The notes beneath the pieces are model-generated. The model saw only the letters and a list, made by a program, of their open reading frames with translations, searched no databases and was not told the DNA's origin. Both the position numbers and the translations under genes were made by a program. Positions 858 through 21,395 of a stretch of 64,000 bases of DNA are shown one piece after another. Position 1 is the first letter of the stretch. Each line of letters starts with the position of its first letter. The stretch comes from Dehalococcoidia bacterium (GTDB taxonomy: Bacteria; Chloroflexota; Dehalococcoidia; GIF9; AB-539-J10): the NCBI GenBank assembly GCA_046538235.1, contig JBKHJG010000001.1:60581-124580 (forward strand), given 5' to 3'.

Positions 858-887
858 TCCTGGCCAAAACCCTGGAAAAGGAGGCAG

Positions 888-1193
888 ATGGACAAATCGA
901 TATTGCGTCAAGCCCAGCAGCTTCAGGCGAAGCTGGCCAAAGCCCAGGAAGAGCTGGGCAGTCTTACGGTGGAAGCAACCAGCGGAGGTGGTGCCGTAAA
1001 AGTGGTAGTTGACGGTCACCAGAAGGTGCACTCCGTGGATATATCCCCGGAGGTGTCGGAGGCTGGCGATGTTGAGTTGCTGCAAGACCTGGTCATGACT
1101 GCTATCAACGAGGCCATTGCCAAGTCGCAGGAGCTTGTTAACAAGCGTCTCAGCAGCCTGACCGGTGGTCTCGACATACCGGGGTTGCCGTAG
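888..1193 (+). CDS. ybaB: YbaB/EbfC nucleoid-associated protein
   Basis: 101 aa with typical YbaB motifs (QAQQLQAKL...VDISPEV...DVELLQDLV). Sits between dnaX and recR. Confidence 0.9.
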   Translation: MDKSILRQAQQLQAKLAKAQEELGSLTVEATSGGGAVKVVVDGHQKVHSVDISPEVSEAGDVELLQDLVMTAINEAIAKSQELVNKRLSSLTGGLDIPGLP

Positions 1194-1333
1194 CGAAGTG
1201 CCTGGAGACCCACCCGGCGTCAGCCGGGACTCGAGCCGGACGCAACGCTTGGGAAGTACTCCCCAAACTGCCGGCCGCGCCTGGAATGACGATAAGCTGA
1301 CAGGGACGACAACAAGGAGAAGAGCCAGGGAAA

Positions 1334-1933
1334 ATGAGGTTTGTTGCTGAGCCTATAGCCAGACTGGTCGAGGAATTCGGCAAGCTGCCCGGCATTGGAC
1401 CAAAGAGCGCCCAGAGGCTCACACATCATGTTCTGCGCAGCTCCGATGAAGAAGCAAGGTCTTTAGCGGAGGCCATTCTAGCGCTCAAGGAGAAGATAAA
1501 GCTGTGTTCCATTTGCTTCAACACTACCGACTGTGATCCCTGCCGCATCTGCCAGGATATGGGGCGTGACCATTCCAGAATATGTGTCGTTGAGAAACCT
1601 TCTGACATCCTGCCCCTGGAACATACGGGGAAATACAACGGTGTTTACCACGTGCTACACGGGACCATCAGCCCGGCGCAGGGCATAGGCCCCGATGACC
1701 TGAAGATAAACGAGCTTCTGGCCCGCCTTCAAAACGGCTCCGTAACAGAGGTGATTATAGCAACCAACCCCAACGTAGAGAGCGAAACCGTGGCTATGTA
1801 TCTGCAACGCATCATCAAGCCCTTCAATATACACGTGACACGCCTGGCGCGCGGCCTGCCCTTTGGGGCTGAGCTGGAATATGCAGACGACCTAACCTTG
1901 GGACAGGCACTGGAAAACAGGCGCGAGTTCTGA
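1334..1933 (+). CDS. recR: recombination protein RecR
   Basis: HhH motif (LPGIGPKSAQRL), C4 zinc finger (CSICFNTTDCDPCRIC) and Toprim region. Confidence 0.92.
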   Translation: MRFVAEPIARLVEEFGKLPGIGPKSAQRLTHHVLRSSDEEARSLAEAILALKEKIKLCSICFNTTDCDPCRICQDMGRDHSRICVVEKPSDILPLEHTGKYNGVYHVLHGTISPAQGIGPDDLKINELLARLQNGSVTEVIIATNPNVESETVAMYLQRIIKPFNIHVTRLARGLPFGAELEYADDLTLGQALENRREF

Positions 1934-1999
1934 CAGGGCTGTACACAACCGCCCCTCTGGGATAGCGGAGGGCTCGGGCAGCGGCGCTTTGCTTAGGCG

Positions 2000-2818
2000 T
2001 TGCTGACACCAAGGGAGACAGACTACGTGATAGAGCTAAGACAGATCGATGACGCCTTAACTCGGTATGTGCGGCCGCAGACGTTTGCACTGGCAATCCG
2101 CATGTGCGGGCCGGAGGAGGAAACTCCCAAGAGGGCTAAGATACCCCGCCGAGACCTGGGAGTAGACATTTCGTTATGTCATGCAGTCAGTATGGCACGG
2201 CGATACGGCTGGGTTATCGCGGTTGACAGGTCTCAGACCTGCTACATTGCTGGCATAAGCCTGGGGTTCCTGCCCCTGGTGGCGGACGTTGTTGACGGCA
2301 GCTTCCAGGCGTCGCTTGGACTGTGGGGAATGAACAAAGAGCAGGCAGCGGCAGCTATTGCGGGCATCCCCAAATTCGAATACGGCAAGTACAGGAACGT
2401 GCTGATTGCTCCTCTACACAGGGCTGCCTTTGAACCGCACGTCATCCTGGTCTACGGTAACCCGGCCCAGATATGGGTGCTTCTAGCAGGCTATCTGAGT
2501 GGAACGGGTAAGACCGGACTGGACACGACACTGGCCACAGGGGCCAGCTGTACGGCTCTTATCACCCGAGCCGTCATAGAAGACGAATGCCAGTTCGCTC
2601 TCATAGGCGTTGGCGAGCGTTTGATTCCTCATACTCAGGACCACGACTGTGCCCTGTCGATACCGGCCAGCAAGATCGAGAAGGCGATTCAGGGCCTGCA
2701 GGCGGGTCATAGCATCGGTGTTTTCAGGTACCCGATTCCTGCATTCCTGAGGTACAGCTCACAGCACCCACCAGGGTATGAGGAAATGAGGAGTCACCTG
2801 CTGGATGCAGAATCGTAG
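2000..2818 (+). CDS. hypothetical protein, possibly DUF169/COG2043-like
   Basis: 272-aa ORF with coding-like composition. Co-directional with and 135 nt upstream of the AbfD homolog. The family assignment is from memory only. Confidence 0.35.
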   Translation: MLTPRETDYVIELRQIDDALTRYVRPQTFALAIRMCGPEEETPKRAKIPRRDLGVDISLCHAVSMARRYGWVIAVDRSQTCYIAGISLGFLPLVADVVDGSFQASLGLWGMNKEQAAAAIAGIPKFEYGKYRNVLIAPLHRAAFEPHVILVYGNPAQIWVLLAGYLSGTGKTGLDTTLATGASCTALITRAVIEDECQFALIGVGERLIPHTQDHDCALSIPASKIEKAIQGLQAGHSIGVFRYPIPAFLRYSSQHPPGYEEMRSHLLDAES

Positions 2819-2953
2819 GAATTCATGCCGCGACCAGTGGCCCCCCGGGGCACGAAGGCGGACACTGGGCCCCTGGTGAATCGAACGCGAGCATGATATA
2901 CTATGCGCTGACTTAGCTTCCAGAAGCCGGAACATGATCCATCCGGCTATCGA

Positions 2954-4468
2954 TTGAGCAAGGAGGAAAACATGAGAACGAAAGAGCAGTACATACAGGG
3001 CCTGGCCAAGATGAGACGAAACGTCTACTTCAATGGCGAGTTGCTCGATCGCACAGATGAGTTGCAGATGGACTGTATAGATACCATCGGCACGACGTTC
3101 GACGAAGCCGCCAAGCCCGAAAACCAGGATCTGTGTACGGCCATCTCCCATCTCACAGGCGAGCGCATCAGCCGCTTCACCCATATTCACCAGAACACCG
3201 ACGATCTGCACAAGAAGCAGGACATGACCCGCATGCTCTGTCAGAAGGTCGCTGGATGCATCCAGCGATGCATGGGCATTGACGCCACCAACGCCATATA
3301 CAACGTATCCTACGAGGCAGACAAGATGAATGAAGGTGCCACCCAGTACCACGAGAACTTCAAGAAGTGGCTTGCGCGCTTCCAGAAGGAAGACCTGGTA
3401 GGCTGTTGCGCGCAGACGGACGTCAAGGGAGATAGGATACTAAGGCCTGCTGACCAGCCTGACCCCGATGCTTACGTACGGATCAAGGAGAGGCGCAGTG
3501 ATGGCATCATAGTCAGCGGCTGCAAGCTGAACATCTCCGAGGCCTCGGTTGCCGACGAGGTCCTGGTGGTGCCGACACGAGCGTTGCGTCCCGAGGACAA
3601 GGACTACGCCGTTGCCTTCGCTGTGCCTGGCGACTGGGAGGGACTGAAGCAGGTGGTTACGATCCATAACCTCAGGTCCAGAGAACACTTCCAGCGCGGC
3701 TTCCGGGCTGGCGCCACAGATTCCTACATGATATTCGATGATTGCTTCGTGCCCTGGGAAAGGGTCTTCCTCGCCGGCGAGTGGCAACACGGAGGCGTAC
3801 TCGCTCTCCTGTTCGCCCTGTTTCACCGCCATTCCTATTCTGGCTGCAAACCTGCCATTGGCGACATCATCTTGGGGAGCGCGGCGCTTGCCGCCGAGGT
3901 TAACAACATACACAAGACACCCCTGGTCCGGCAGAAGCTGGCCGAGATCATCCTCACCACCGAACTGGGGTATGCGGCGGGATACACAGCCTCCGACCTG
4001 GGCAAGCCGGAGGTCTACATACCGGGCCTCGGATTCGTGCCCTATGGCCCCGGCTCTTACATACCGAATTCGATCTACTGCAACGTGGGCCGTTGCCTGA
4101 CCGGCGAGGCCGTCTACCGCGAAGCGGAGATGCTCTGCGATATCGCCGGCGGGGTGGTAGCTACATTCCCCTATGAGCAGGATTTCCTCAACCCCGAGAC
4201 CCGGGACTTGCTCCTCAAATACACCAAGCGCAATCCCAACATGCCTGTCGAAGATCAAGCACAACTCTGGCGTTACCTGGGCGATGTGCTGTGCTCAGCA
4301 GCCGGAGGCATTCACAATATCGGCAGCTACCACGGCGGCGGCTCACCCATCATGGAACAGATCGCCATCACCACCCAGTATGACATCGAGTCCCGGAAAA
4401 AGCTGGTCCGCTATATTGCCGGCATGAGCGACGGCGACCCTGATGCGCTGAGCAAAAAGAGGACCTGA
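2954..4468 (+). CDS. 4-hydroxybutyryl-CoA dehydratase / vinylacetyl-CoA delta-isomerase family protein (AbfD/HpaB superfamily)
   Basis: Collinear similarity to Clostridium aminobutyricum AbfD (EQYIQGL..VYFNGE; RFTHIHQNTDDLHKKQDM..CQKVAGCIQRC; HRHSYSGCKPAIGDIILGSAALAAE). The Cys/His positions that ligate the [4Fe-4S] cluster are conserved. Confidence 0.8.
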   Translation: MSKEENMRTKEQYIQGLAKMRRNVYFNGELLDRTDELQMDCIDTIGTTFDEAAKPENQDLCTAISHLTGERISRFTHIHQNTDDLHKKQDMTRMLCQKVAGCIQRCMGIDATNAIYNVSYEADKMNEGATQYHENFKKWLARFQKEDLVGCCAQTDVKGDRILRPADQPDPDAYVRIKERRSDGIIVSGCKLNISEASVADEVLVVPTRALRPEDKDYAVAFAVPGDWEGLKQVVTIHNLRSREHFQRGFRAGATDSYMIFDDCFVPWERVFLAGEWQHGGVLALLFALFHRHSYSGCKPAIGDIILGSAALAAEVNNIHKTPLVRQKLAEIILTTELGYAAGYTASDLGKPEVYIPGLGFVPYGPGSYIPNSIYCNVGRCLTGEAVYREAEMLCDIAGGVVATFPYEQDFLNPETRDLLLKYTKRNPNMPVEDQAQLWRYLGDVLCSAAGGIHNIGSYHGGGSPIMEQIAITTQYDIESRKKLVRYIAGMSDGDPDALSKKRT

Positions 4469-4560
4469 GGCGGGCAGCTCCTGCCCTGCCCCCCGGTCAC
4501 AGTGACGCACATCATCAGCGGCCCAGGCGGTTGCCTCTGAATTGCAGGTCAGCCATCGGC

Positions 4561-5673
4561 TCAGGACCCCTTCAGCCGGTGGGACACCCGCTCCTCCGTT
4601 ATCCCCAGTGCGGCAGCGATCTCCTTCTCCCCCAGGCCCGCATCCTTGAGCTTGAATACTTCTCGTGTTTGCCTTGCCTTGTCTTTCTTTCTGCTGGCTG
4701 TTTCCTTCAGGTCAAGGATGTATTCTATCTCCCTCGTCTGTACAAGCTCTTTCTCTGCCAAGCCGGCAAAGACCTTTTCCCCTTCTTCGGTGCGGACTAT
4801 CACCGTTGACCACCCTTCGGCGGAGCCGCCGCTGCCGACAGCGATGTCGGCCATCTCAGCGGCAAAATCCTGACAGACCAGGCAGTGCCTGGGGACGCAG
4901 TTCTTAACGTCGGTTATGGGCAAGGACAGCTTCTCTCCCTCAACATATATATCGAACTCATCCGATATATCGATCTTGGCAGCCCTGCCGATGTCCAACC
5001 CCTTTGCCCTTAGCGTCTCGGCCAGGCACGCATATTCATAGTTCTCCCGACAGAACAGCCCTATCGTCAGCTTCACGGATGATGCCAGCGGCAGGCCCTT
5101 GTATTGAAGATATCTTACCGATTGTATATGGCAGGGAGAACCGACAACACAGACCTTGCCCAGCCCGAGGTCAACAACGGCGGTCCGCAGCTCCTTCAGC
5201 AGCGGCACCGCGCCGTACTTGGTGCCAGCCGACCGGACAATGTCGTCCCTGGTCCCGGCGATACAGGCCGCCGGCGCCCGGCCCTCATTGCCGACCACCA
5301 GTGCCCCGTCGATGATGCCACTATCCAGAGCATACAGGAGCAGGGACGTCACTATTCCGCCATCCTGACAGACCTTCGCGACCTCGGTGTCCCGCGTCCT
5401 CGCCGCCGTTACGCTCCTGTGCAGTCCTATGCTCTCCCTCTTTCCCCATCCCATAATGCTGCTCTCTATGACCTTCATTAGGTCATGCCTGTGCATATAG
5501 CAGGCTTCGTAACAGGTACTGCAACCCACGCAGTCGATGGTGCGCTTGGGTCGCTTGGGCCTACTGTCAATGAACTTGATATGGGAACTGGGACAGGCGA
5601 GGATACATGCACCGCATCGAGTGCATTCTCCTGTATCTATTATCTGAGCCTCTAGGTCCTCATAGCCGGGCAT
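4561..5673 (-). CDS. FrhB/FdhB/FpoF-family flavoprotein (coenzyme F420 hydrogenase/dehydrogenase beta-subunit family) with N-terminal 2x[4Fe-4S] ferredoxin domain and a C-terminal HTH-like tail
   Basis: Two CxxCxxCxxxCP-type cluster motifs at the N-terminus. FrhB_FdhB N/C domain signatures (GGIVTSLLLYAL; VVGSPCHIQS). The last ~45 aa resemble a helix-turn-helix (GEKEIAAALGITEERVSHRL). Confidence 0.65.
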   Translation of the reverse strand: MPGYEDLEAQIIDTGECTRCGACILACPSSHIKFIDSRPKRPKRTIDCVGCSTCYEACYMHRHDLMKVIESSIMGWGKRESIGLHRSVTAARTRDTEVAKVCQDGGIVTSLLLYALDSGIIDGALVVGNEGRAPAACIAGTRDDIVRSAGTKYGAVPLLKELRTAVVDLGLGKVCVVGSPCHIQSVRYLQYKGLPLASSVKLTIGLFCRENYEYACLAETLRAKGLDIGRAAKIDISDEFDIYVEGEKLSLPITDVKNCVPRHCLVCQDFAAEMADIAVGSGGSAEGWSTVIVRTEEGEKVFAGLAEKELVQTREIEYILDLKETASRKKDKARQTREVFKLKDAGLGEKEIAAALGITEERVSHRLKGS

Positions 5674-5760
5674 ATTTCTCCGCTCCCGGTGTTACTATGG
5701 AACGACAGACTAAGACGAGGCAGATGCAGATGCCGCAGTACACAACGGAGGCAATCCGCC

Positions 5761-7449
5761 TCACTTCAGTTGCCCGCTGGCCTTCATCTTGCCTATCTCC
5801 TCCTCCCTCAACTGCCGCTTGAAAAGCTTGTCTGTTACGGTCAAAGGCAGCTCCTCGCGGAACTCAACGAACTTGGGCACGGCGTAAGGCGGCAGCTTAG
5901 CCCTGCAATGGCTGATTATCTCCTCGGCAGTTGTTTTCCCTTCATATTCAGGCCTCAGGCTGATGAACGCCTTTATCCGATCACTGCCCGGGCGCTCAAC
6001 GTCGGGTATTCCAATCGCCACGGCATCCGCAACGGCCGGATGCTCGTACAGCACATCATCAACCAACCTCGTATAGACTTTGAGCCCTGAGACGTTCGCC
6101 ATGTCTTTGATGCGATCCGTAATGTAGAAGTAGCCATCATCGTCCATGGTCACCACATCACCCGTGGGCAGCCAGCCATCAACCAGGCCCTTGCCGGCCT
6201 GAGGCCAGTAACCTAACATAACCTGCGGGCCGCGAACCCAGAGTTCGCCTTCCTTCCCCGGGGCAGCCTCTTGACCGGTGTCCAGGTCCACTATCCTGAC
6301 CTCTGTATCCGGGGTCGGCACTCCTATGGAACCGAGCTTTTCGGCAGGCATGAAGCCGATGAGCTTTGAGAATGCCGAGAGGTTGATATGTGTACCTCCG
6401 CTTGTCTCCGACAGCCCGTATGCCTCGGTGATAGGCATGCCGGTCTGCTGCTTAAACCTTTGGGCAATCTCCACCGCCAGCGCTGAGGCACCAGACATGA
6501 ACATGGTGTTTATCCTGCCCAACCCCCTGGTGGCCAACCTGGAATATTGAGTCGGCACACAGGAGCAGAGAAAAGGTCGGTGTCTGGTCAGCATTTCGTA
6601 CAGCATATCGACATCTCTGGGGTCCGGGATCAAGTACATCTTAAGCCCCCAGTGGACGGCAAAGTGCATCATCATATGACCGTACTGATGGAACAGTGCC
6701 ACGGGCATCATTATGGAGGTCTTCCCCCTGACTCCCACCTTGAGGGGTTCCATATACCAGGCAACATGCGTCAGCGCCACGGACCGGTTGTAATGGGTCA
6801 GCATCACGCCTTTGGGCAGCCCGGTGGCACCACCGGTAAAGGGCAGCACAGCCAGGTCCTTCATCGGGTCAATATCAACATCAGGTGGATCGGGGTCATG
6901 GCCCTCGATGAGATCGCGAAACAGGAGGGCGCCGGGCGGCCGTTCCTCCGCTGGCCCTTCCGGGGAGTAATCCGTAAGCGAGGTGACTATCACGTTCTTG
7001 ACTCGCGTCTTGTCCTTTATCGAGTTCACCGCCTCCAGCGACACCTCCGTGCAGACAACCGTTTCCGCCCCGGAGTCACCAATCTCGTACACTAGATCAG
7101 CCGCCTTATGGAGTACGCTGCAGGGGACATGGACGGCCCCCGCCTTCAGTATTCCGAAATCGCCAATGATGAACTGGGGGCAGGTCGGCAGGATGGTGGC
7201 CACTTTGTCTCCTTTGTTGACGCCCAACCCGGCGAGCGCGGTGGCAAATCTATCGGCCTCCTGTTTCAGTTCTGTATAGCTCATCTCGCGTCCCAGATAG
7301 GAGCAGGCGGCCTTACCGGGGAACTCGGCCGCCGCAGCATCGAGAAGGCTGTCAATAGGTATCTTTGGATAAGGCTCTTTGCTCTGCGCAAGCTTGTATG
7401 GCCCCAACTTGTATTGCTTGAGCCAGGGTTTTTCGGCTACTGAAACCAT
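5761..7449 (-). CDS. AMP-forming acyl-CoA synthetase (ANL superfamily)
   Basis: AMP-binding motifs (LPFTGGATGLPKGVMLTH; YGLSETSG; TGDVVTMDDDGYFYITDRIKD). Directly downstream of AOR (3-nt gap). Confidence 0.88.
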   Translation of the reverse strand: MVSVAEKPWLKQYKLGPYKLAQSKEPYPKIPIDSLLDAAAAEFPGKAACSYLGREMSYTELKQEADRFATALAGLGVNKGDKVATILPTCPQFIIGDFGILKAGAVHVPCSVLHKAADLVYEIGDSGAETVVCTEVSLEAVNSIKDKTRVKNVIVTSLTDYSPEGPAEERPPGALLFRDLIEGHDPDPPDVDIDPMKDLAVLPFTGGATGLPKGVMLTHYNRSVALTHVAWYMEPLKVGVRGKTSIMMPVALFHQYGHMMMHFAVHWGLKMYLIPDPRDVDMLYEMLTRHRPFLCSCVPTQYSRLATRGLGRINTMFMSGASALAVEIAQRFKQQTGMPITEAYGLSETSGGTHINLSAFSKLIGFMPAEKLGSIGVPTPDTEVRIVDLDTGQEAAPGKEGELWVRGPQVMLGYWPQAGKGLVDGWLPTGDVVTMDDDGYFYITDRIKDMANVSGLKVYTRLVDDVLYEHPAVADAVAIGIPDVERPGSDRIKAFISLRPEYEGKTTAEEIISHCRAKLPPYAVPKFVEFREELPLTVTDKLFKRQLREEEIGKMKASGQLK

Positions 7450-7452
7450 ATC

Positions 7453-9315
7453 TCACCCCTGTATACTGCTGATTATATAGTCGAGTCCCAGTGCCCTGAG
7501 CTTCTCGGCAGTGGGCTTGCCGGTCGTCTTGTCCCAGCCGCGGAACCCATAATAAGCGTCCAGCATCTGGTCGAGCTTTTCCACCTTATGTCCCTCGGCG
7601 GGCCCCTCGGGTAATGGCTCCTCGAGCAGTCTCTTAGGAAGCGTATCATCGGCCCGGGTCAGGCCCTCTCTGACATTGAAGGCTCTGGCCAGGTTGTAGA
7701 CCCTCTCCCCGACTTTCCTGAAATCGCCGACACCGAACTCCCAGCCCGTGCAGTTCGCTATCATGCCGGCCCAGTCCTCAGTAGCCAATGCCATGCCCAT
7801 GAACTTACATGTGCCCACACAATCGAAGACGGTCAGCGCGTCCTCCAGGTCCTTCACCACCTTGGCCTCGGCAGGGTTCTCCACCAGCGCATCCTCAATC
7901 TTGCTCTCCTCAACACAGAGGAAAGGAATATCTATGAAGGCCGGTCCCTCAATGTAGGCTGTGATATGGTCACCGCCCCTGTTGGCCGTGGCAAAGGCCA
8001 GCCCGCATATCTTGGCCGCCCTGGGGTCATAGGCCGGTAGTTCCAGGCCCTTAACATTCATGGCAAAGGTCTCGGCGCCCTTGTCCAGCCTGGCAGCCAT
8101 TCTCTTCGTGCCTTCAGCCAGCAGGTCGCCAATGCCTTCCCTCCTGGCTATCTTGTGTATGAGCGCAATGACGACATCGGCATCCCCGAATTCCAGTTCC
8201 AGCCCATCCGTATCAGCCTTGGTCAATATCCCTTTCTCATAGCATTCTATGGCAAAGGCTATCGTGCTGCCGGCGGAAATCACATCCAGCCCATAGTCAT
8301 CGCACAGGTTGTGGGCCAGGGTGATCGCCTCGAGATTCTCCAGCCCGCACATGGCACCGAAGGCGCCGACCGTCTCAAACTCCGGCCCCTCACCCTTACA
8401 GGCGTAGGGACCGCTCTTAACCACACTCACCCGGCAACAGCTGATGGGACAGGCATAGCAGTGCTTTCTATCCACCAGGAGCGTGCTCTCCAGCGCGATT
8501 CCGCTCACTTTGTCTATGTCCGGAAAGACCCCGGTCTGCCAATTCCTGGTAGGGAACCCTCCCCTGACGTTTATCAAATCGGCAACCATGGCCGTCCCAT
8601 AGGTCTCGAAGGTGATCTTCAGCATGCTTTCATTGACCAGATCATAGTTCCGTCTGGAGATTTCGCTGAAGGCATCGTTGTTGGCTGTTCTGATCTCCTG
8701 TGTCCCCCGGGCAACCACCGCCTTCAGCCGTTTCGATCCCATCACCATGCCCACGCCGCATCTCCCGGCAGCCCGGTGTACATCATTGACGATACCGGCA
8801 TACCTCACCAGATTTTCGCCTGCTATGCCTATAGCGGCAACGTTGCAGTCATCGCCCACTTCTTCCTTGATGAGCTTATCCGTCTCGCTGACTCCTTTGC
8901 CCCAGAGATGCCCGGCATCCCTCAGTTCAGCCATACCGTCGTCTATAACCAGGTAGACCGGCTTCGGCGATATGCCCTTGAAGATAACCCCGTCAAATCC
9001 GGAGTTCTTGAGATAGACTCCCCAACTGCCGCCAGAGTTGGCCTCTCCCCACAAACCGGTTAATGGTGACTTGGTAACTACGCAATACCGCCCGGCGCTC
9101 GGCGATTCCGTGCCGGTCAGGGGACCGGTCATGAAGATGAGTTCGTTGTCGGGGCCGAGCGGGTCGGCGCCCTCGGCCACCTCGTCGAAAAGATACTTGG
9201 TGGCCAGCCCGCTGCCGCCCAGAAACATCCTGCAATCCTCTTCATTCAGGTTCTCCTCTGATACCTTGCCATCGGTCAAATCAACCCTCAGGACCTTTCC
9301 CATATAGCCGAACAT
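7453..9315 (-). CDS. aldehyde:ferredoxin oxidoreductase (tungsten/molybdopterin AOR family)
   Basis: AOR N-terminal domain (GKVLRVDLT...FLGGSGL) and full-length family similarity. The start is probably the internal Met (MFGYMGKVLRVDLT); the ORF track extends it to 9342. Confidence 0.9.
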   Translation of the reverse strand: MFGYMGKVLRVDLTDGKVSEENLNEEDCRMFLGGSGLATKYLFDEVAEGADPLGPDNELIFMTGPLTGTESPSAGRYCVVTKSPLTGLWGEANSGGSWGVYLKNSGFDGVIFKGISPKPVYLVIDDGMAELRDAGHLWGKGVSETDKLIKEEVGDDCNVAAIGIAGENLVRYAGIVNDVHRAAGRCGVGMVMGSKRLKAVVARGTQEIRTANNDAFSEISRRNYDLVNESMLKITFETYGTAMVADLINVRGGFPTRNWQTGVFPDIDKVSGIALESTLLVDRKHCYACPISCCRVSVVKSGPYACKGEGPEFETVGAFGAMCGLENLEAITLAHNLCDDYGLDVISAGSTIAFAIECYEKGILTKADTDGLELEFGDADVVIALIHKIARREGIGDLLAEGTKRMAARLDKGAETFAMNVKGLELPAYDPRAAKICGLAFATANRGGDHITAYIEGPAFIDIPFLCVEESKIEDALVENPAEAKVVKDLEDALTVFDCVGTCKFMGMALATEDWAGMIANCTGWEFGVGDFRKVGERVYNLARAFNVREGLTRADDTLPKRLLEEPLPEGPAEGHKVEKLDQMLDAYYGFRGWDKTTGKPTAEKLRALGLDYIISSIQG

Positions 9316-9363
9316 TCTGCTCCTCCTTCTATCTTCTGGCATGAGCCAGCCAATCGGTCTCCA

Positions 9364-9627
9364 TCATTCCTCAAACTGCCCACTGATGGCATCAAACCGC
9401 CGCACACTATGGATTGTCTCAAACGGCGTTTGTGTCAGGCGGAGAACGCGCCTCAGGACCTTCTCGTCCGGCGCCTCCCATTCACAGAAGTGCCTGCTCG
9501 CTACGAAATCGCAGTAACTGCATTTCCAGGAGACACCTTTAGGCATGAAGCTCGGCGCAGCCTTGGCCCGTGCCATCAACTCCTCCTCAGTGAATGGTGC
9601 CTTGTGAACAACCATGAAGCGTGCCAT
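9364..9627 (-). CDS. small DUF4242-like protein
   Basis: 87 aa beginning MARFMVVHKAP with a ...FCEWEAPD pattern as in DUF4242. Sits between the ADH and AOR genes on the same strand. Confidence 0.45.
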   Translation of the reverse strand: MARFMVVHKAPFTEEELMARAKAAPSFMPKGVSWKCSYCDFVASRHFCEWEAPDEKVLRRVLRLTQTPFETIHSVRRFDAISGQFEE

Positions 9628-9688
9628 CTTTGCCTCCTAATGATCCCTCCCGCAGTCTGTGGAAATCGCCGGGGCCGCCCCAGCAAAG

Positions 9689-10855
9689 CTAGAAATCTAT
9701 ACTCTTTCCTTCGTAGGTGTAGCTGAAGAATCTGTCTGTTTCCGCAACATCAGGTATTCTGGGGGAGACAATCAACGAGCCGTCGGCCATGAGGTTGTCT
9801 ATCAGCTTCTCCATGGCCTTGTTGAAGCCGTCCAATGGAATGCCGGTCTCTCTGATACTCAACGGTTGGTTGATAGTGTGGGCCAGTCCCCTGATAGCCT
9901 CAGCCAGCGCCGCTGCCGCCGTCTTGCCCCGGGGTATCTCCAGATTGATAGCGTACGCGATCTCTGCCCATAGTTCTTCGCGGGCCTCACCGATGAATTC
10001 GATGGTATAGGGCAGAAACAGCCCAACTGCTCTGCCGTGGGGTACATGAAATACGGCGCCGAGCGAATGCCCTGCAGCGTGGGCCATGCTTGAGAGAGCA
10101 TTGATGAAGCCGATACCTGCCATGCAGGCCGCATTATGCATCTTTTCACGGGCTTCCATGTCGCCGCCATCCCTCACCGCTCTGGGCAGGTATCGGAAAA
10201 CAAGCTGTATCGCTTTGATACAGAAACCGTCTGAGAAGTCGTTCTTCCAATCGCAGGTATATCCCTCGACTGCGTGAGTTAGCGCATCCATTCCCGTGTC
10301 TGCCGTGATGTGAGGAGGCATGGCCCGGGCCAGTTCCGGATCCACGATGGCAATATCAGGGACGATCTCACGGTTGATAAGGCTCAGCTTTCTCTGGTCG
10401 CCCGGGTCGGTAAGCACCACCGCGAAAGTTGCCTCGGCGCCCGTGCCCGAGGTTGTGGCCACGCAGACAAGCCTGCACTTGCAGCCCAGGCCCAGGTCCG
10501 AGAGAAATGGGTTTATCTCCTCCGCCCTCATGTCCGGCCTTTCATATTGTACCCTCATGGCCTTGGCTGCATCCATGACCGAACCCCCACCCACAGCAAC
10601 AACCACATCGGGCCGATACTGGTTCATCAGAGCCACACCCTTGTCTACCGTATCCAGTGAAGGGTCGGGCTCAACGGCATCAAAGACAGCGGCTTGAATT
10701 CCGGCCCGGGCCAGATGCTCCTTGACCCTGTCAACAAAGCCCAGCTTCACAATGTTTTTATCTGTAACTATGAGTGCCGACTGGCCCTTAAGTTCAGACA
10801 GATGGCTGAGCGCGTCCTCGCCGAATACCACCTGCGGAGCAACAAAATACCACAT
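9689..10855 (-). CDS. iron-containing alcohol dehydrogenase (Fe-ADH family)
   Basis: GGGSVMDAAK NAD motif and Fe-binding His motifs. 388 aa. Confidence 0.9.
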   Translation of the reverse strand: MWYFVAPQVVFGEDALSHLSELKGQSALIVTDKNIVKLGFVDRVKEHLARAGIQAAVFDAVEPDPSLDTVDKGVALMNQYRPDVVVAVGGGSVMDAAKAMRVQYERPDMRAEEINPFLSDLGLGCKCRLVCVATTSGTGAEATFAVVLTDPGDQRKLSLINREIVPDIAIVDPELARAMPPHITADTGMDALTHAVEGYTCDWKNDFSDGFCIKAIQLVFRYLPRAVRDGGDMEAREKMHNAACMAGIGFINALSSMAHAAGHSLGAVFHVPHGRAVGLFLPYTIEFIGEAREELWAEIAYAINLEIPRGKTAAAALAEAIRGLAHTINQPLSIRETGIPLDGFNKAMEKLIDNLMADGSLIVSPRIPDVAETDRFFSYTYEGKSIDF

Positions 10856-10943
10856 GGCTAGCTAACGCCCCTCCCCACTGGACTATTCTCCGTGTTTTAT
10901 ATCAGTCAAATACCGACCTGAAAGCGGTCCGAACTCCCACCCT

Positions 10944-11354
10944 CTAGTCAGGGAACACCGCATCAACCGTGCTCAGGCAGTTCGTAAACTCGAGCGCCGC
11001 CCTGGGCATCCTCATGATCTGCCCCATGTTTCCCTTCACCTTCAGCTTACCCGTCATCATTGCCTTAACGGGGTCAAGCTTCTTCTCCAGCAGCTGTTTC
11101 ATAACCGTATACGGCCCGGAGATCCTGTACTGGGGCGACTTCTCCGTCTCATCCTTGATGGCCGAGGCAGAGCGGCATTCGCCGTGCCAGAGATCGAAAT
11201 AGCCGATGATCCTGTGCTTGAACGACGCATCCGGCTCAATAATCACGTACATGTCCCCCTCCCAGTTCTTGGCCACCTCCTTGTAGGTCTGACTGTTGTT
11301 TAGCTCCTGCATTGCTGCATCAGCCCATTCCTGGGTTCCAATCGTTAATGCCAT
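10944..11354 (-). CDS. SCP2 sterol-carrier-like domain protein
   Basis: C-terminal MTGKLKVKGNMGQIMR motif typical of SCP2. Likely start at the internal Met (MALTIG); the ORF track extends it to 11402. Confidence 0.6.
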   Translation of the reverse strand: MALTIGTQEWADAAMQELNNSQTYKEVAKNWEGDMYVIIEPDASFKHRIIGYFDLWHGECRSASAIKDETEKSPQYRISGPYTVMKQLLEKKLDPVKAMMTGKLKVKGNMGQIMRMPRAALEFTNCLSTVDAVFPD

Positions 11355-11529
11355 AGTCGCACCTCCCGAATCCGTACTAGGATACGGCCTATTATACACC
11401 ACATTTTCAGCCGGAAATCAAACACTTCCCATTCGCTCCTGGCATACACGGGCGAGCTTCGGTCATCGCAAGTCATAGTTCTTCTCGCGTCCCGGAAATC
11501 GTATGCGTTCGGCGGCTTCACACAAAGAG

Positions 11530-11558
11530 GGGGCCGGGGCTCAAGAGCCCCGGCCCTC
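11530..11558 (-). terminator. GC-rich hairpin downstream of the acylase gene (gggccggggctc-aaga-gagccccggccc)
   Basis: 12-bp perfect stem located 55-80 nt past the acylase stop. No strong U-tract follows. Confidence 0.35.
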
Positions 11559-11611
11559 AATGCTAGCTCCTGCCGACACGGTCAATAGGCAATGCCGGCA
11601 AGGGGGCAGTT

Positions 11612-14392
11612 CTAGTCAGCGAAGAAGTCTCTTTCCCAGGTCGCGACCGCTTCCACTGACACGCGGCTAAGATGCATGGGCTTGTACGTCCAGCTCGCAT
11701 ACAGCAATACCTGGTCATAAGCGTGCGGGCTGGGAGTTGGCGTGGGCGTTTTGCCATCCACTATCTTGAGCTCCATGAACCCGCTCTGCCCGGGCGGAAT
11801 GACGTTCTTGCCCTGCGGCAACGGCGTCGATAGCTCGGCGATCTGGTTATAGGTACCACGGTTCATGGCCGGGTGGCTGAACACGTCGGTCGGCAGGGCT
11901 CCCAGTTTGTCATACTTCTGCATACGCACCGGGGTCAGCCAGGTCGACATGTCCTCGCCGTATTCAACCTTCAGGTCAGCAATCGCCTCTTTCAACGCAT
12001 CCATAATCAGCGCATCCAGTGCCTCGCCAGTCGGGTAGCCAGGATAGTTGAGGGACCCATCAGCCCTGAACACGCGGACCAGCAGGCTGGGATAACCCTT
12101 GACCTGTCCGATCATATCTGCCGGCAGAATCCCGTCAAACACCATGGGGACGACCTTGTCGTACCAGGCATTGAAGATGGTCAGACCGGCATGATCGTAA
12201 GTAGGATTCTCATCGTCAGGCCACTTGGGTGGTACAAAATCGACATAACTGACAGGAAGAGGGGTTGCTGTAGCCCAGGCTCCGAGGTGCTCCAGGGCTG
12301 CTACAACCTCCGGGTCACTGGTCTCTCCCACATAAGCCGTGGCCGCGGTTATCAGATCCCCCGCAAAGTTCATTCCTGCGGTATTGTGGTATCCGGCAAC
12401 CTGATTAATCGTGTTCAGATGGGCGGGCGTGAGGTCTCCACCGGCGGCCAATGCGGTCACAGTATCCAGCAGTATCTGCACACGGTGACCGTCGCCCCAG
12501 TGGAAGTCACTCTCTGCAAATGGCCAGCCAGCAATTGGTTTGTTGTTCCAATTGGTGAGCCAACCCTGCTCAGGATTGATCGACCTGGGCATCTCCTCAG
12601 GCCCGGTGACGCGCACCCATTCCTGTGTTCCGTCGCCCATCAAGGGCGTCCTGGGATCGGCACCCTCCGGCTTCACCGGGAAGCGCCCGGCATGCCAGTA
12701 GCCGATGTTGCCTTCGGTATCTGCCCACAAGAAGTTGTGGTTAGGCCAGATCATCTCCACCGCCGCCTCAAACTCGTCGACGTTGGTGGCCTCCTGGAAA
12801 AGTTCCCAGCCCTGCTCGCCCGCGATCTCATTTCTGTAGAAGGGGGTGTGCAGGGTGAAGGCCGTGCCTGCGTCTACGTCCACCTCGACGATGGGCCCAT
12901 AATGCGAGCGATAGAACGTCTCCGTTACCGGCTCAGCCAGCCCGCGAACCACGAACGTCTCGGTCCTGACCTCCATGTCACGCCACTCACCCTCATACAG
13001 GTACTGAGTCGGGTTCTCGGGGTTCAGTACCAGTACACGGATGTCCATAACATCGGAGGCACCGGTGGTTGACGTCCAGGCCCCATATTCACTGACGCCG
13101 ATCAAGATGAACGGACCTGCCGACGGGAATGCCATGCCCACGGCGTTTATGCCGTCGCCATGCAGACCTATCTCCATGACAATCTGCGGAACCGAGTAGC
13201 CCATCTGGGGTCCTCCCAGTAGCAGGGCATTCCCGGTGGCCGATAGTTCAGGCCTGACGGGTAGGGCATTGCTTCCCAGTTTCCGCGGTATGCCCAGCGA
13301 CTGAAGCAGCTCATCCTGCGCCGCCCGGGACTCCGCGTATTCCACAAAGAGCTCCTCCACGCCGTCCGGCAAATCCACCAGAGAAACGGTGGTGGCGGCA
13401 GCTTCCCCGAAAACCTGGTCGGGTATCGTAACCGGTGCTCCGGCATCTTCGAGTGGGAAGAGGTCGCTCCATACCGCCCCTCCTAGCGCCTCTCCGTGCA
13501 CTGCCTGTAGGCCAAGCAAAGCAGTGTACATGTCGCCTTCGTTGCCACCCGTACCACCAAACCTCCAACCCATTAGCACCGTAACGGCAACTACATCCGA
13601 CACGGTGAACTCCTCGAGTTCGCCAATCAGCTTGTTCGCCACATATTCAATAGGCATGAGAGACGGATCGAGCAGCGCTTCATAGATGTAAAGGTTTATG
13701 CCATCTACATAGGCTTCAATCATGGGCTTGAGGTGCCGGTAGCCCGCGCCGGGATCCCAGTCGTCATACATCTCCTGTAGCTCCGCCTGGTTGTACCACA
13801 ATGCCCTCAGTTCCTTGTCCTGAGCCAGATAGTCCGGGCCCAGAAGTTCGGCAAGGCGGCCGGAAGCGGTTCTGCGCAGGACATCCGCCTGCCACAGCCT
13901 GTCCTGGGCCATGGCATAGCCAGCTCCAAAGGCCAAGTCCTCTCGCGTGTCGGCGAAGACGTGGGGAACTCCGTAGTCGTCTCTGATGATGGTAAGCAAG
14001 GGCTGCGGAGGTGGGGTGGCTGGGAATTCAGCGATTACCACATCCGATCCGGCAGCATTGCTTACCGATGCTGCACCGGCTACCTCAAAGAAGTTCGCCG
14101 GCACGCCAATGAAGGTGTAGCCTTCTTTGGCTGTCAATATGATGGTGGCCGTGTATGCTGTGTCTGCCTCAAACAGATCATGGTCGGGGTCCCAGGCCAC
14201 GGTTCCTGTGTACTGCTCCGTTGGGGTAATCGTGGTCACCGGCGTTTCACCTGTTGCCGGTGGGGTTACCCCAGAGATCTCCTCAATGTCAATTGTCTGC
14301 AGCTCGCCATCGCCGTCACTGGGTTGACAGCCAGCCACAACCAGTCCCATCACAAGCAGGGACACCAAGATAAGGTAAGTGATTCTTTTCAA
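11612..14392 (-). CDS. penicillin amidase (S45 Ntn-hydrolase) family lipoprotein with an extra ~110-aa N-terminal module; TTG start
   Basis: Lipobox (LVVAGC). Penicillin acylase alpha-subunit motifs (IIRDDYGVPHVFADT..GYAMAQDRLWQ) and beta-subunit N-terminal nucleophile context (GSNALP). 926 aa. Confidence 0.85.
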   Translation of the reverse strand: MKRITYLILVSLLVMGLVVAGCQPSDGDGELQTIDIEEISGVTPPATGETPVTTITPTEQYTGTVAWDPDHDLFEADTAYTATIILTAKEGYTFIGVPANFFEVAGAASVSNAAGSDVVIAEFPATPPPQPLLTIIRDDYGVPHVFADTREDLAFGAGYAMAQDRLWQADVLRRTASGRLAELLGPDYLAQDKELRALWYNQAELQEMYDDWDPGAGYRHLKPMIEAYVDGINLYIYEALLDPSLMPIEYVANKLIGELEEFTVSDVVAVTVLMGWRFGGTGGNEGDMYTALLGLQAVHGEALGGAVWSDLFPLEDAGAPVTIPDQVFGEAAATTVSLVDLPDGVEELFVEYAESRAAQDELLQSLGIPRKLGSNALPVRPELSATGNALLLGGPQMGYSVPQIVMEIGLHGDGINAVGMAFPSAGPFILIGVSEYGAWTSTTGASDVMDIRVLVLNPENPTQYLYEGEWRDMEVRTETFVVRGLAEPVTETFYRSHYGPIVEVDVDAGTAFTLHTPFYRNEIAGEQGWELFQEATNVDEFEAAVEMIWPNHNFLWADTEGNIGYWHAGRFPVKPEGADPRTPLMGDGTQEWVRVTGPEEMPRSINPEQGWLTNWNNKPIAGWPFAESDFHWGDGHRVQILLDTVTALAAGGDLTPAHLNTINQVAGYHNTAGMNFAGDLITAATAYVGETSDPEVVAALEHLGAWATATPLPVSYVDFVPPKWPDDENPTYDHAGLTIFNAWYDKVVPMVFDGILPADMIGQVKGYPSLLVRVFRADGSLNYPGYPTGEALDALIMDALKEAIADLKVEYGEDMSTWLTPVRMQKYDKLGALPTDVFSHPAMNRGTYNQIAELSTPLPQGKNVIPPGQSGFMELKIVDGKTPTPTPSPHAYDQVLLYASWTYKPMHLSRVSVEAVATWERDFFAD

Positions 14393-14535
14393 CCTTTAGC
14401 CTCCTTCTTGTTCTTTTGGTTATTCCGATTTCCTGGCAGTTAGGCTTTGGGCGCCGGAAGGATCCAGTCGACCACTAGTTGCCTCCGGCGACCGTTCCTT
14501 CATGCAGTACCCCGATAGATCCACCTCCTTTCTCT
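14000..14535 (-). repeat. copy 1 of a dispersed inverted duplication (leader + RBS + TTG start + signal peptide + N-terminal domain); partner at 55743-56285
   Basis: Near-identical RBS/start context (aatcgga..aaggaggc.aaaggTTGAAAAGA). ~130 aa of collinear protein identity and ~140 nt of upstream nucleotide similarity to the partner copy. Confidence 0.8.
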
Positions 14536-14754
14536 CCGGCCTCGGTCAATGCCGAGTCACAGGTTGCCCGTTTCGCCAACTTACCAGGCGATTCATGCGG
14601 AATTCGGGAAAGAACAGGGGCAAAAGAGCAGACGTTGCTGTGACCGCAATGAGGGAGCCGAAACCACGTTGATATGCGCTCGGCTGAATCTGACGTAAAC
14701 CGAAGGACTCCCCTGACGTACACACTTGACCACCGACCTAGCGTAGGCCCTTCC

Positions 14755-14785
14755 ATTATACCCCTCTTGACCAGTGAATTGTCAA
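14755..14785 (-). promoter_or_regulatory. sigma70-like promoter TTGACA-N18-TATAAT on the minus strand, ~355 nt upstream of the acylase start
   Basis: Consensus -35 and -10 hexamers read on the minus strand (plus-strand tgtcaa at 14780-14785, attata at 14755-14760). Confidence 0.5.
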
Positions 14786-21376: not shown

Positions 21377-21395
21377 TTTGTGAAAGGAGGTTAGA

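Follow-up and report, generated by a model that had tools for sequence, protein, structure and literature searches.

Gene organization of the locus

In the window, by which we mean the whole 64-kb stretch of DNA that was analyzed, an AbfD-like gene on the plus strand is followed by an operon of six genes on the minus strand (Table 1). The operon runs from 11354 to 4561 in the order SCP2, iron-type alcohol dehydrogenase (Fe-ADH), DUF4242, aldehyde:ferredoxin oxidoreductase (AOR), AMP-forming ligase, and FrhB-like protein, with all genes on the same strand and intergenic gaps of 3–88 nt. The ligase gene starts 3 nt past the AOR stop codon, and the FrhB-like gene is preceded by an 87-nt gap. Upstream of SCP2, we found a promoter-like element resembling TTGATT..TATAAT and a terminator-like hairpin, which separates the operon from a penicillin-amidase gene. 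The likely start of SCP2 is the ATG at 11354, which has GGGAGG ahead of it; the open reading frame reaches 11402, and the orthologues are 136 aa long. The AbfD-like gene begins with the ATG at 2972, behind AAGGAGG.

All genes listed in a preliminary description of this DNA were present at the positions given, and its domain calls were correct, with strong Pfam support. It had placed the AbfD-like gene divergently from the operon; the actual orientation is convergent, 3′ end to 3′ end, and therefore no shared promoter region is possible. The DUF169 gene lies within the region it covered and went unmentioned there. The methylmalonyl-CoA mutase, the epimerase, and the N-terminal part of a thiolase at the end of the window, which it had counted among further members of the 4-hydroxybutyrate cycles, are all present, but 27–52 kb from the AbfD/operon region and surrounded by housekeeping genes.

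Table 1. Positions of genes and other features in the window.
Feature	Position	Strand	Evidence
DUF169 (COG2043) protein, function unassigned	2000-2818	+	Pfam PF02596, E = 7e-37
AbfD-like [4Fe-4S]/FAD protein, HpaB fold	2972-4468	+	HpaB_N/HpaB_C
FrhB-like protein, last gene of the operon	4561-5673	-	Pfam FrhB_FdhB_N/C + Fer4
AMP-forming acyl-CoA synthetase, FadD type	5761-7449	-	AMP-binding + AMP-binding_C
Tungsten-type aldehyde:ferredoxin oxidoreductase (AOR sensu stricto)	7453-9342	-	AFOR_N/AFOR_C
SCO4226-like/DUF4242 small protein, accessory member of the operon	9364-9627	-	PF14026, E = 8e-11
Fe-ADH resembling the AdhE ADH domain	9689-10855	-	Fe-ADH + ADH_Fe_C
SCP2 lipid-carrier-fold protein, first gene of the operon	10944-11354	-	PF02036
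Terminator-like element: GC-rich hairpin, then a T-tract	11531-11556	-	11-bp stem, 10 G-C pairs
Penicillin-amidase/Ntn-hydrolase lipoprotein	11612-14392	-	PF01804, E = 6e-127; N-terminal lipobox VAGC
Methylmalonyl-CoA mutase	38241-39896		
Epimerase-type glyoxalase	39941-40363		
B12-binding subunit	40311-40751		

The AbfD-like gene and the operon occur separately

The AbfD-like gene belongs to a recR–DUF169–AbfD chromosomal backbone, and DUF169 orthologues (~70% identity) lie upstream of it in related Dehalococcoidia whether the operon is present or absent. This backbone was found at 12 loci, half of which (6/12) lack the operon. At L008, L012, and L018, the slot is empty, and the AbfD stop codon is followed ~240 bp on by that of priA. 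When AbfD-like loci were counted as species representatives with at least 2.5 kb of downstream sequence, the operon was present at 6 of 63. Ten operon copies, forming the more divergent clade, have an FrhB-like protein with less than 66% identity, and AbfD is nearby in none of them, six having 6.6–10 kb of downstream sequence. In one Dehalococcoidia clade, the operon fills the variable slot that separates AbfD from priA; the operon and the AbfD-like gene are two independent units that occur separately. In the closest clade, the operon adjoins the AbfD-like gene in 24 of 32 contigs, which we attribute to shared ancestry of one arrangement; a functional link between the two is possible there.

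The operon itself is well preserved. Every one of the 21 metagenome contigs that extend 6.9 kb or more upstream of FrhB carries ligase, AOR, Fe-ADH, and SCP2 in an unchanged order, and 14 of these 21 complete copies also have DUF4242. Within the reach of the searches made, the operon was seen only in Dehalococcoidia/Chloroflexota records.

The AbfD-like protein has a changed catalytic set

The AbfD-like protein retains all Fe–S ligands (C99, C103, H292, and C299) and Tyr296. Its PDB matches were 1U8V (E = 4e-90) and 6VJR (E = 4e-73), with HpaB oxygenases reaching at best 8e-28. It is thus far closer to the 4-hydroxybutyryl-CoA dehydratases (4HBDs) than to the HpaB oxygenases. However, its identity to the two characterized 4HBDs is 37% and 32%, whereas these two share 59% with each other. 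A family-wide residue table showed that T190S, E257D, and A460G are invariant in its subfamily and that residue 455 has changed from Glu to Gly in 116 of 120 members and is Ala in the remaining four. The resulting signature (C99 C103 S190 D257 H292 Y296 C299 G455 G460) reads CCSDHYCGG, whereas among superfamily representatives every cluster sharing 48% identity or more with the characterized 4HBDs has CCTEHYCEA. According to a published report (bioRxiv 10.1101/2020.02.05.935528), T190, E257, Y296, and E455 matter for dehydratase activity. By these sequence features, the protein represents a discrete, extremely conserved subfamily with a changed catalytic set and is not demonstrably a 4-hydroxybutyryl-CoA dehydratase. 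The label "bona fide AbfD" was right as to the Fe–S ligands, but too strong in view of Gly at position 455 and the low identity.

Enzymes of the operon

The SCP2 protein matched Thermus SCP2 (PDB codes: 2CX7/1WFR; E = 5e-19). The Fe-ADH matched the ADH domain of AdhE (PDB code: 3ZDR; E = 8e-90) and scored 339 bits with the NCBIfam AdhE model. We considered whether it is 4hbD-like and rejected this candidate, as it scored 192 bits against a cut-off of 500 with the 4-hydroxybutyrate dehydrogenase model. The AOR aligned with 1AOR (E = 5e-157), and the Cys residues that bind the [4Fe-4S] cluster, like the equivalents of Glu313/His448, were conserved in the alignment, identifying it by sequence as a canonical AOR. 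For the ligase, the best NCBIfam models were all long-chain-fatty-acid-CoA ligases, all scoring under their cut-offs, and FadD-1 (PDB code: 3G7S) matched over the full length (E = 1e-53); by similarity the ligase is FadD-like. NCBIfam equivalog cut-offs were reached by neither the ligase nor the Fe-ADH.

The FrhB-like protein resembles FwdI and ACDS-zeta

The FrhB-like protein comprises an N-terminal 2×[4Fe-4S] ferredoxin domain, an FrhB domain with a [4Fe-4S] cluster and a flavin site, and a C-terminal tail that is HTH-like; the AlphaFold model (pLDDT 44) was too poor for use. Its domain order is that of ACDS-zeta and FwdI, which it matched over the full length (8RIU_B, 4e-47; 8RJA_E, 5e-50), and with 370 aa it is as long as ACDS-zeta (FwdI, 359 aa). 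Twelve cluster cysteines are invariant across 124 family members, and all 12 match FwdI and ACDS-zeta. Identity is 37% to FwdI, 33% to zeta, and 38% to FrhB, with these three sharing 31–36% among themselves. FwdI and ACDS-zeta have been described as F420-reductase-type modules with a ferredoxin domain, which is the part docking onto partner metalloenzymes; in Ca. Ethanoperedens, FwdI serves formylmethanofuran dehydrogenase and ACDS-zeta serves CO dehydrogenase (PMC11493965). The electron-transfer role proposed earlier for the FrhB-like protein is well supported by this structural precedent, at the level of sequence, and the likeness suggests that through it the AOR is connected to an acceptor of the deazaflavin or flavin kind. 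The putative pairing of an AOR with an F420-reductase-type module appears to be undescribed so far.

A different view is that the FrhB-like protein is an independent Fe–S flavoenzyme with another substrate or cofactor, the AOR using free ferredoxin. With the ligase gene interposed between those of the AOR and the FrhB-like protein, adjacency fails to single out the AOR as partner, and the 87-nt gap fits this view as well. The FrhB fold includes non-F420 enzymes, such as 7-hydroxymethyl chlorophyll a reductase; the NCBIfam FrhB cut-off was missed (219 vs 269 bits); F420 synthesis by this organism is only putative, its biosynthesis genes not being found within the 64-kb window; and the HTH-like tail has no evident role. 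However, the FrhB-like protein accompanies the AOR without exception in the complete copies, including those with identity as low as 58%, its N-terminal domain is the very part that docks FwdI and zeta, and no further redox enzyme of the operon requires an Fe–S electron wire. We therefore regard independence of the FrhB-like protein as unlikely.

Proposed function of the two units

With slightly better than even confidence, we read the region as an operon converting alcohols and aldehydes to acyl-CoA with an AOR–FrhB outlet, plus a separate AbfD-like gene. The function of the operon is most likely the oxidative funneling of alcohols and aldehydes into acyl-CoA. The Fe-ADH would oxidize alcohol to aldehyde, the AOR would convert aldehyde irreversibly to acid, and the ligase would activate the acid to acyl-CoA for β-oxidation. 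SCP2 may act as carrier for a hydrophobic substrate, a hint that the compounds are of medium or long chain length; this substrate class is suggested by SCP2 and the FadD-type similarity only. Electrons would pass from the [4Fe-4S] cluster of the AOR to the pair of [4Fe-4S] clusters in the FrhB-like protein and, at its flavin site, on to a diffusible acceptor (F420, provided that the organism produces it), a route modeled on FwdI and ACDS-zeta in Ca. Ethanoperedens. The acid/aldehyde couple (~ -580 mV) can irreversibly reduce F420 (~ -340 mV) or ferredoxin, and this would pull the unfavorable ADH step. The AbfD-like Fe–S flavoprotein would act on some acyl-CoA. The generic acid/aldehyde/alcohol interconversion module, offered earlier as a fallback, is well supported.

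The operon might instead run reductively, as an electron sink that turns acid into aldehyde and then alcohol like the AOR and ADH of acetogens, with the FrhB-like protein feeding low-potential electrons to the AOR. Given reduced ferredoxin, AORs can work in reverse, and pairs of AOR and ADH yield alcohols in Clostridium and Pyrococcus; the AdhE-like Fe-ADH and a ferredoxin domain able to take electrons from a low-potential donor would also suit a sink. Such a sink is nevertheless improbable, as the invariably kept ligase consumes acid and has no place in it, F420H2 is unable to reduce carboxylates at the potentials above, and β-oxidation enzymes neighbor the divergent operon copies. In keeping with the oxidative reading, these copies have neighbors from aldehyde and acyl-CoA metabolism. 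At L153, they are a TPP enzyme, an ADP-forming acyl-CoA synthetase, acyl-CoA dehydrogenases, and second copies of Fe-ADH and SCP2; at L154, a glycyl-radical enzyme with its activase; and at L117, a Zn-ADH with an enoyl-CoA hydratase.

The preliminary description had proposed a ferredoxin-linked 4-hydroxybutyrate cluster around AbfD, in which the AOR would reduce succinate to succinic semialdehyde, the Fe-ADH would form 4-hydroxybutyrate, and the ligase and AbfD would lead through 4-hydroxybutyryl-CoA to crotonyl-CoA. The adjacency in this window and the close clade, the retained Fe–S ligands and Tyr296 with the distance from HpaB oxygenases, and the mutase, epimerase, and thiolase speak for it. 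So does the recurrence of AbfD-like subfamily genes beside AMP-forming or ADP-forming acid-activating enzymes in other lineages, by which the operon ligase could in principle feed the AbfD-like protein; to this extent one part of the 4-hydroxybutyrate logic holds in general form. The two units are convergent and each occurs without the other, and the AbfD-like protein is without a catalytic residue of true 4HBDs; a dedicated 4-hydroxybutyrate pathway is therefore unsupported. The (nearly) invariant substitutions at 190, 257, and 455, the low identity to 4HBDs, and the AdhE-like Fe-ADH all weigh against it. The FadD-like ligase is 33–36% identical to AbfD-adjacent ligases of other phyla, a level it also shows with an unrelated ligase in the window. 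A hydrophilic C4 pathway has no use for SCP2, the genes for the mutase, epimerase, and thiolase lie over 27 kb away, and an F420-linked FrhB-like partner could not, by established redox potentials, drive acid reduction. We consider this route very unlikely.

Variable neighbors of the operon

In L101/L102, the penicillin-amidase gene is found on the opposite flank of the operon, and many relatives lack it; it is probably a variable neighbor in the same chromosomal slot and not an operon member. Genes beside the operon also include ThiF-family members in 11 loci and ThiS-family members in nine; if these are MoeB/MoaD-type pterin-cofactor genes, they would fit the AOR as the central enzyme.

Gene organization of the locus

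The domain assignments made for this locus in the preliminary description were all correct, with strong Pfam matches. However, the AbfD-like gene and the operon had been described as divergent, and our analysis revealed that they are convergent, their 3′ ends facing each other across 92 bp. The six genes from SCP2 to the FrhB-like gene are spaced by only 3–88 nt, and the ATG start codon of SCP2 at 11354 has a well-formed ribosome-binding site and a sequence resembling a promoter upstream of it. Together with the hairpin that follows the amidase gene, these features delimit a transcription unit running from SCP2 to the FrhB-like gene. This hairpin was the sole convincing element in a promoter and terminator scan whose totals did not exceed those of shuffled sequence. 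An Rfam scan of positions 1–18000 at E ≤ 1 returned nothing relevant, and no Moco/W riboswitch was detected upstream of the operon.

Coordinates and assignments of genes and elements in the window
Feature	Position	Strand	Remarks
ORF, 266 aa	57–857	+	No Pfam match; C-terminal DnaX part by synteny with the relatives' locus L005
dnaX (3′ end), ybaB, recR	First 17 kb of window, before DUF169	+	
DUF169	2000–2818	+	
AbfD/HpaB-fold gene (AbfD-like)	2972–4468	+	Pfam HpaB_N + HpaB_C
FrhB-like gene	4561–5673	-	
AMP-forming ligase	5761–7449	-	
AOR	7453–9342	-	AFOR_N + AFOR_C
SCO4226-like/DUF4242 small gene	9364–9627	-	
Fe-ADH	9689–10855	-	
SCP2	10944–11354	-	
GC-rich hairpin	11556–11531		Terminator-like; 3′ of amidase gene
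Penicillin-amidase-family gene	11612–14392	-	
priA	After amidase gene, same strand (in the two parts below)	-	
priA, helicase part	14928–16787	-	Broken gene, 14928–17356
priA, 3′-DNA-binding domain	16868–17356	-	Different frame from helicase part
ORF, 466 aa	23406–24806	+	Both aspartate carbamoyltransferase catalytic domains and PyrI C-terminal metal-binding domain
ORF, 462 aa	32686–34074	-	No Pfam match
LIV-type ABC transporter, binding protein	55892–57793		
LIV-type ABC transporter, permeases	58283–60242		
LIV-type ABC transporter, ATPases	60274–61786		
Second AMP-forming ligase, then thiolase start	61788–63503; ~63720–64000	+	Window end; strand applies to thiolase start

The nearest relatives of every gene in the window were Dehalococcoidia/Chloroflexota records. 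Recent horizontal acquisition of the operon was considered and rejected, as its GC content equals that of its flanks. Membership of the amidase in the operon was likewise rejected on the basis of the intervening terminator-like hairpin, a lipoprotein signal and its variable position, and we regard it as an exported enzyme in its own right. This penicillin-amidase/Ntn-hydrolase shows weak similarity to PvdQ-type acylases, carries a lipoprotein signal peptide ending in VVAGC, and has an extra N-terminal region of ~130 residues ahead of the amidase domain. Next to a fatty-acid-type ligase operon, such an exported acylase could free acids from N-acyl compounds, but nothing connects the two. The adjacent priA gene is broken into two ORFs whose open frames overlap at ~16870–16950; the break is a frameshift, caused by misassembly or marking a pseudogene.

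The AbfD-like gene and the operon are separable units

The AbfD-like gene and the operon had been proposed to form one 4-hydroxybutyrate (4HB) cluster. To evaluate their linkage, we collected two sets of loci from relatives (L-numbers), one by a search anchored on the AbfD-like gene (one genome per species, 80 loci) and one by a search anchored on the FrhB-like gene (metagenome contigs, 80 loci), and placed the window proteins in both sets by tblastn. The operon itself proved to be highly conserved: each of the 21 contigs that extend 6.9 kb or more upstream of the FrhB-like gene contained the ligase, AOR, Fe-ADH and SCP2 genes in the same order, and 14 of them also had DUF4242. Of the 63 AbfD-anchored loci whose downstream sequence spans 2.5 kb or more, 6 contained the operon and 57 did not. 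On the recR/DUF169–AbfD backbone common to 12 loci, six carried the operon and six did not, and at L008, L012 and L018 only ~240 bp lie between the stop codons of AbfD and priA, representing an empty slot.

The FrhB-anchored contigs gave the corresponding result from the other side. With at least 1.8 kb downstream available, AbfD was present in 24 of 42 contigs and absent in 18. All 24 AbfD-bearing contigs fall in the clade whose FrhB is at least 66% identical (24/32), and AbfD was found in none of the 10 members of the divergent operon clade, six of which have 6.6–10 kb of downstream sequence. The side of the operon on which the amidase lies also differs between genomes (L101 versus the window). 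The simplest reading of these data is that a slot of variable content lies between AbfD and priA, and that in one Dehalococcoidia lineage the operon occupies it, sometimes together with the amidase. The convergent arrangement and the occurrence of each unit without the other in relatives speak against a single 4HB cluster; no consistent linkage of AbfD with a 4HB-forming reductase and a CoA-activating enzyme was found. Distant DUF169 paralogues, 28–33% identical to that of the window, were observed at L001 (4842–5618), L002 (934–1710), L016 (~4212) and L036 (~99), lying within 5–10 kb of AbfD-like genes in genomes without an adjacent DUF169 orthologue, and the association of DUF169 with AbfD-like genes is possibly recurrent.

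In other genomes, the AbfD-like genes adjoin acyl-CoA enzymes, a feature shared with 4-hydroxybutyryl-CoA dehydratase (AbfD/4HBD). Within the 80 AbfD-anchored loci, the neighbors were SDR genes (22 loci, often directly downstream), AMP-forming ligases (20), a thiolase directly upstream (11), an ADP-forming acyl-CoA synthetase (9), a carboxyltransferase (8) and an acyl-CoA dehydrogenase (6); at L050, L051, L071 and L073, 61 bp separate the AbfD-like gene from the ligase gene upstream of it, which has the same orientation. Given these neighbors, the substrate of the AbfD-like protein is very likely a CoA thioester. A Syntrophobacterales contig (L003, 7172–14983) encodes an AMP-ligase, a PTE-family (lactonase-like) protein, an AbfD-like protein with 85% identity, a 3-hydroxyacyl-CoA dehydrogenase and an OYE/2,4-dienoyl-CoA-reductase-like flavoprotein, and this context suggests lactone or 4-hydroxyacid catabolism for the AbfD-like subfamily. 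At a distance of 9 kb (20343–21515), the contig carries another AbfD/HpaB-family paralogue, next to a LIV-type ABC transporter.

The AbfD-like protein belongs to a separate Fe–S lineage

The AbfD-like protein matched the two characterized enzymes, Clostridium aminobutyricum AbfD (1U8V) and Nitrosopumilus maritimus 4HBD (6VJR), with E-values of 4e-90 and 4e-73, respectively, and HpaB no better than 8e-28. An identity as an HpaB-type oxygenase was therefore rejected, the Fe–S ligands being present. Like the characterized enzymes, the protein has the HpaB-type fold, and the [4Fe-4S] ligands C99, C103, H292 and C299 do not vary between the window protein and 120 relatives; Y296, K300, R90 and Q101 are kept as well.

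However, its designation as a bona fide AbfD was not borne out. The protein is 37% identical to 1U8V and 32% identical to 6VJR, which are 59% identical to each other, and it differs from them by an 11-residue insertion. A preprint (bioRxiv 10.1101/2020.02.05.935528) describes T190, E257, Y296 and E455 as important for activity beyond the cluster ligands, and lists the E455 equivalent of the archaeal enzyme as a critical catalytic residue. The AbfD-like protein retains only Tyr296 of these four. All 120 relatives have T190S, E257D and A460G; at position 455 they have Gly (116) or Ala (4), with no acidic residue nearby in the AbfD-like sequence. These 120 closest relatives, from Dehalococcoidia, Desulfobacterota and others, are 82–91% identical to the window protein; subfamily members are 82–93% identical to one another and are very abundant in Dehalococcoidia and Desulfobacterota. 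We found no description of this subfamily in the literature.

An exhaustive search of 1.84 billion representatives yielded 2034 relatives, of which 229 reached E ≤ 1e-30, and residue signatures were compared across 86 full-length representatives at 50% identity. The canonical signature CCTEHYCEA occurred in only three of the 86, which are 48–74% identical to the characterized enzymes. The window signature CCSDHYCGG was confined to its own cluster (representative 67–68% identical) and one other (41–43% identical), and dozens of other Fe–S-bearing AbfD-like clades carry yet different residues. The window protein thus does not group with the characterized 4HBDs, but is one among many uncharacterized Fe–S lineages. 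Unlike characterized 4HBD loci, the window provides it with no abfT, 4hbD or Nmar_0206-type operon partner, and no 4HB genes were linked to the AbfD-like gene on the Dehalococcoidia backbone studied.

4HBD (KEGG K14534) serves in metagenome surveys as a marker of the 3HP/4HB and DC/4HB CO2-fixation cycles (PMC10645885, PMC8406227). As the AbfD-like proteins lack Glu455 and fall outside the characterized clade, marker matches to them should not be taken as evidence for either cycle, and this Gly455 subfamily can mislead surveys of CO2 fixation based on marker genes.

The FrhB-like protein resembles F420-reductase modules

Full-length matches to the FrhB-like protein were obtained with FwdI (8RJA chain E; 5e-50) and ACDS-zeta (8RIU chain B; 4e-47), both from the ethane oxidizer Ca. 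Ethanoperedens thermophilum (PMC11493965). In zeta, the ferredoxin domain is N-terminal (residues 1–83) and holds two [4Fe-4S] clusters; residues 84–349 form an F420-reductase domain with one [4Fe-4S] cluster and FAD, and residues 350–370 a C-terminal extension. In these modules the ferredoxin domain docks onto enzymes that are normally ferredoxin-coupled, so that F420 is reduced instead, and one of the partners, Fwd, is a tungsten/molybdenum-pterin enzyme (PMC11493965). The FrhB-like protein matches zeta in length (370 aa; FwdI, 359 aa) and in domain order, and is 37% identical to FwdI, 33% to zeta and 38% to FrhB, which are mutually 31–36% identical. Its 12 cluster cysteines, eight in the ferredoxin domain and four in the FrhB domain, do not vary among 124 family members; all 12 align to FwdI and FrhB, and ACDS-zeta aligns at 10 of the 12. 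The protein shows the FwdI/ACDS-zeta-type architecture, with an N-terminal 2×[4Fe-4S] domain followed by a four-Cys FrhB domain, over its full length. Assignment as FrhB proper failed, the scores staying below the NCBIfam cut-offs (PRK09325, 219 versus 269 bits; TIGR03289, 190 versus 331), and no hydrogenase genes (FrhA, FrhG) were found near the gene.

Unlike FwdI and zeta, the FrhB-like protein occurs in a bacterial host and its putative partner is an AOR. Its C-terminal tail also differs, being helix-turn-helix-like where zeta has a dimerization extension. This tail (window 4564–4671, minus strand; residues ~335–370, LGEKEIAAALGITEERVSHRL) resembles the helix-turn-helix of sigma-70 region 4/LuxR type, has a weak NCBIfam sigma70-ECF match (E = 9e-4) and is conserved in the family. 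An AlphaFold2 model of the single chain, built from an alignment of 27 sequences at least 69% identical, had a pLDDT of 44, and the tail was the only confidently modeled part (pLDDT 75–91).

Some Chloroflexi make F420 (PMC8498797). No F420 biosynthesis genes were present within the 64-kb window, and our literature search returned neither a report of F420 biosynthesis in Dehalococcoidia nor one of an AOR paired with an FrhB-type protein. The putative AOR/FrhB-like partnership rests on strict co-occurrence of the two genes, between which the ligase gene lies.

AOR, Fe-ADH, ligase and SCP2

The operon AOR matched the aldehyde:ferredoxin oxidoreductase (AOR) of Pyrococcus furiosus (1AOR) over its full length (E = 5e-157). 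It has the same two Pfam domains, and alignment with 1AOR showed that the cluster motif CxxCxxxC with the distal Cys and the active-site equivalents of Glu313 and His448 are conserved. Judged by its domains and residues, it is a canonical AOR sensu stricto, predicted to use tungsten. Its pairing with an alcohol dehydrogenase recalls the AOR and ADH pairs of anaerobic alcohol oxidizers. In contrast to P. furiosus AOR, it is encoded in an operon of fixed composition, alongside SCP2, a FadD-type ligase and the FrhB-like protein, and no separate ferredoxin gene accompanies it. The catalytic subunit of Aromatoleum aromaticum AorABC (8C0Z) is homologous (E = 2e-130), and the two systems would share the concept of a tungsten AOR with its own Fe–S and flavin outlet instead of free ferredoxin. 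However, the operon encodes neither an AorA-type polyferredoxin nor an AorC-type FAD/NAD subunit, and in place of the dedicated electron-transfer subunits of AorABC one FrhB-fold protein is the candidate for the outlet, which would imply a different acceptor, with a deazaflavin as the candidate in place of the NAD+ used by AorABC.

The Fe-ADH was most similar among PDB entries to the ADH domain of AdhE (3ZDR; E = 8e-90) and scored 339 bits with the NCBIfam AdhE model; with the 4hbD model NF058672 it reached 192 bits against a cut-off of 500, which speaks against the 4hbD type. The ligase best matched long-chain-fatty-acid-CoA ligase models and A. fulgidus FadD-1, and no equivalog cut-off was reached. 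As its identity to several different AbfD-adjacent ligases of Desulfobacterota (33–36%) is the same as that to the unrelated second ligase of the window (35%), it is not an orthologue of the AbfD-adjacent ligases. SCP2 matched Thermus SCP2, a hint of hydrophobic ligands.

Proposed function of the operon

Two readings of the locus had been offered, a ferredoxin-linked 4HB pathway and, as a fallback, a generic module interconverting acids, aldehydes and alcohols. The 4HB pathway would draw on the homology of the AbfD-like protein to the dehydratase, together with the adjacent ligase and Fe-ADH, but the two units are separable, the AbfD-like residues are altered and the Fe-ADH is AdhE-like, so that this reading finds no support. 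The fallback reading is upheld and can be sharpened: the gene content supports a predicted oxidation of alcohols and aldehydes to acyl-CoA with a dedicated F420-reductase-type outlet. The operon has so far been seen only in Dehalococcoidia-type records.

Within this alcohol and aldehyde oxidation route, the FrhB-like protein would take electrons from the cluster of the AOR and hand them to a diffusible deazaflavin or flavin. The redox potential of the acid/aldehyde couple is ~ -580 mV and that of F420 ~ -340 mV; aldehyde oxidation would therefore be irreversible if coupled to F420, and would pull the unfavorable alcohol dehydrogenase step. The oxidative direction is thus favored, as it also is by the conserved ligase, which would consume the acid. 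We tentatively put forward a proposal that, taken whole, we consider possible but rather unlikely: that a bacterial aldehyde:F420 (or other deazaflavin/flavin) oxidoreductase is built from the AOR and the FrhB-like protein and that, separately, the AbfD-like subfamily (Ser190/Asp257/Gly455) is a new Fe–S/flavin radical enzyme with some other hydroxyacyl-CoA or enoyl-CoA as its substrate. [quoted passage not shown]

If true, the AOR/FrhB-like pairing would couple tungsten aldehyde oxidoreductases to an electron acceptor in a new way and would show modular F420-reductase rewiring a second time, here in bacteria, extending the principle to the AOR family; it would also matter for how sediment Dehalococcoidia conserve energy and for the biocatalytic use of AORs. 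As a well-defined and conserved unit, the operon offers a starting point for learning which alcohols or aldehydes these uncultured sediment bacteria consume.

Neighbors of divergent operon copies

At L153, the operon is adjoined by a TPP enzyme, another Fe-ADH, an ADP-forming acyl-CoA synthetase, an OYE-type reductase and acyl-CoA dehydrogenases, and at L117 by a Zn-ADH and an enoyl-CoA hydratase. At L154 (11665–14995; also L155), a PFL-like glycyl-radical enzyme of 805 aa and a radical-SAM activase lie 3′ of the FrhB-like gene; as many glycyl-radical enzymes make aldehydes, this enzyme could supply the AOR substrate there. These neighbors fit an aldehyde-centered route into acyl-CoA metabolism, and none is specific to 4HB. 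Furthermore, a second SCP2 paralogue (~124 aa) was found upstream of the operon in 16 loci, and ThiF-family genes (11 loci) and ThiS-family genes (9 loci) lie by the operon in relatives, in divergent orientation (examples of these three at L119, 9–383; L153, 3893–4264; L135, 2699–3577; and L114, 2342–2626). The ThiF and ThiS genes may be MoeB/MoaD-type pterin-cofactor genes. All three are missing from the window, where the amidase fills their position.

Other features of the window

The 466-aa ORF with aspartate carbamoyltransferase and PyrI domains appears to be a PyrB–PyrI fusion in a pyrimidine biosynthesis cluster. The stretch at 55892–64000, comprising the LIV-type transporter, the second ligase and the thiolase start, looks like a separate locus for acid uptake and activation.
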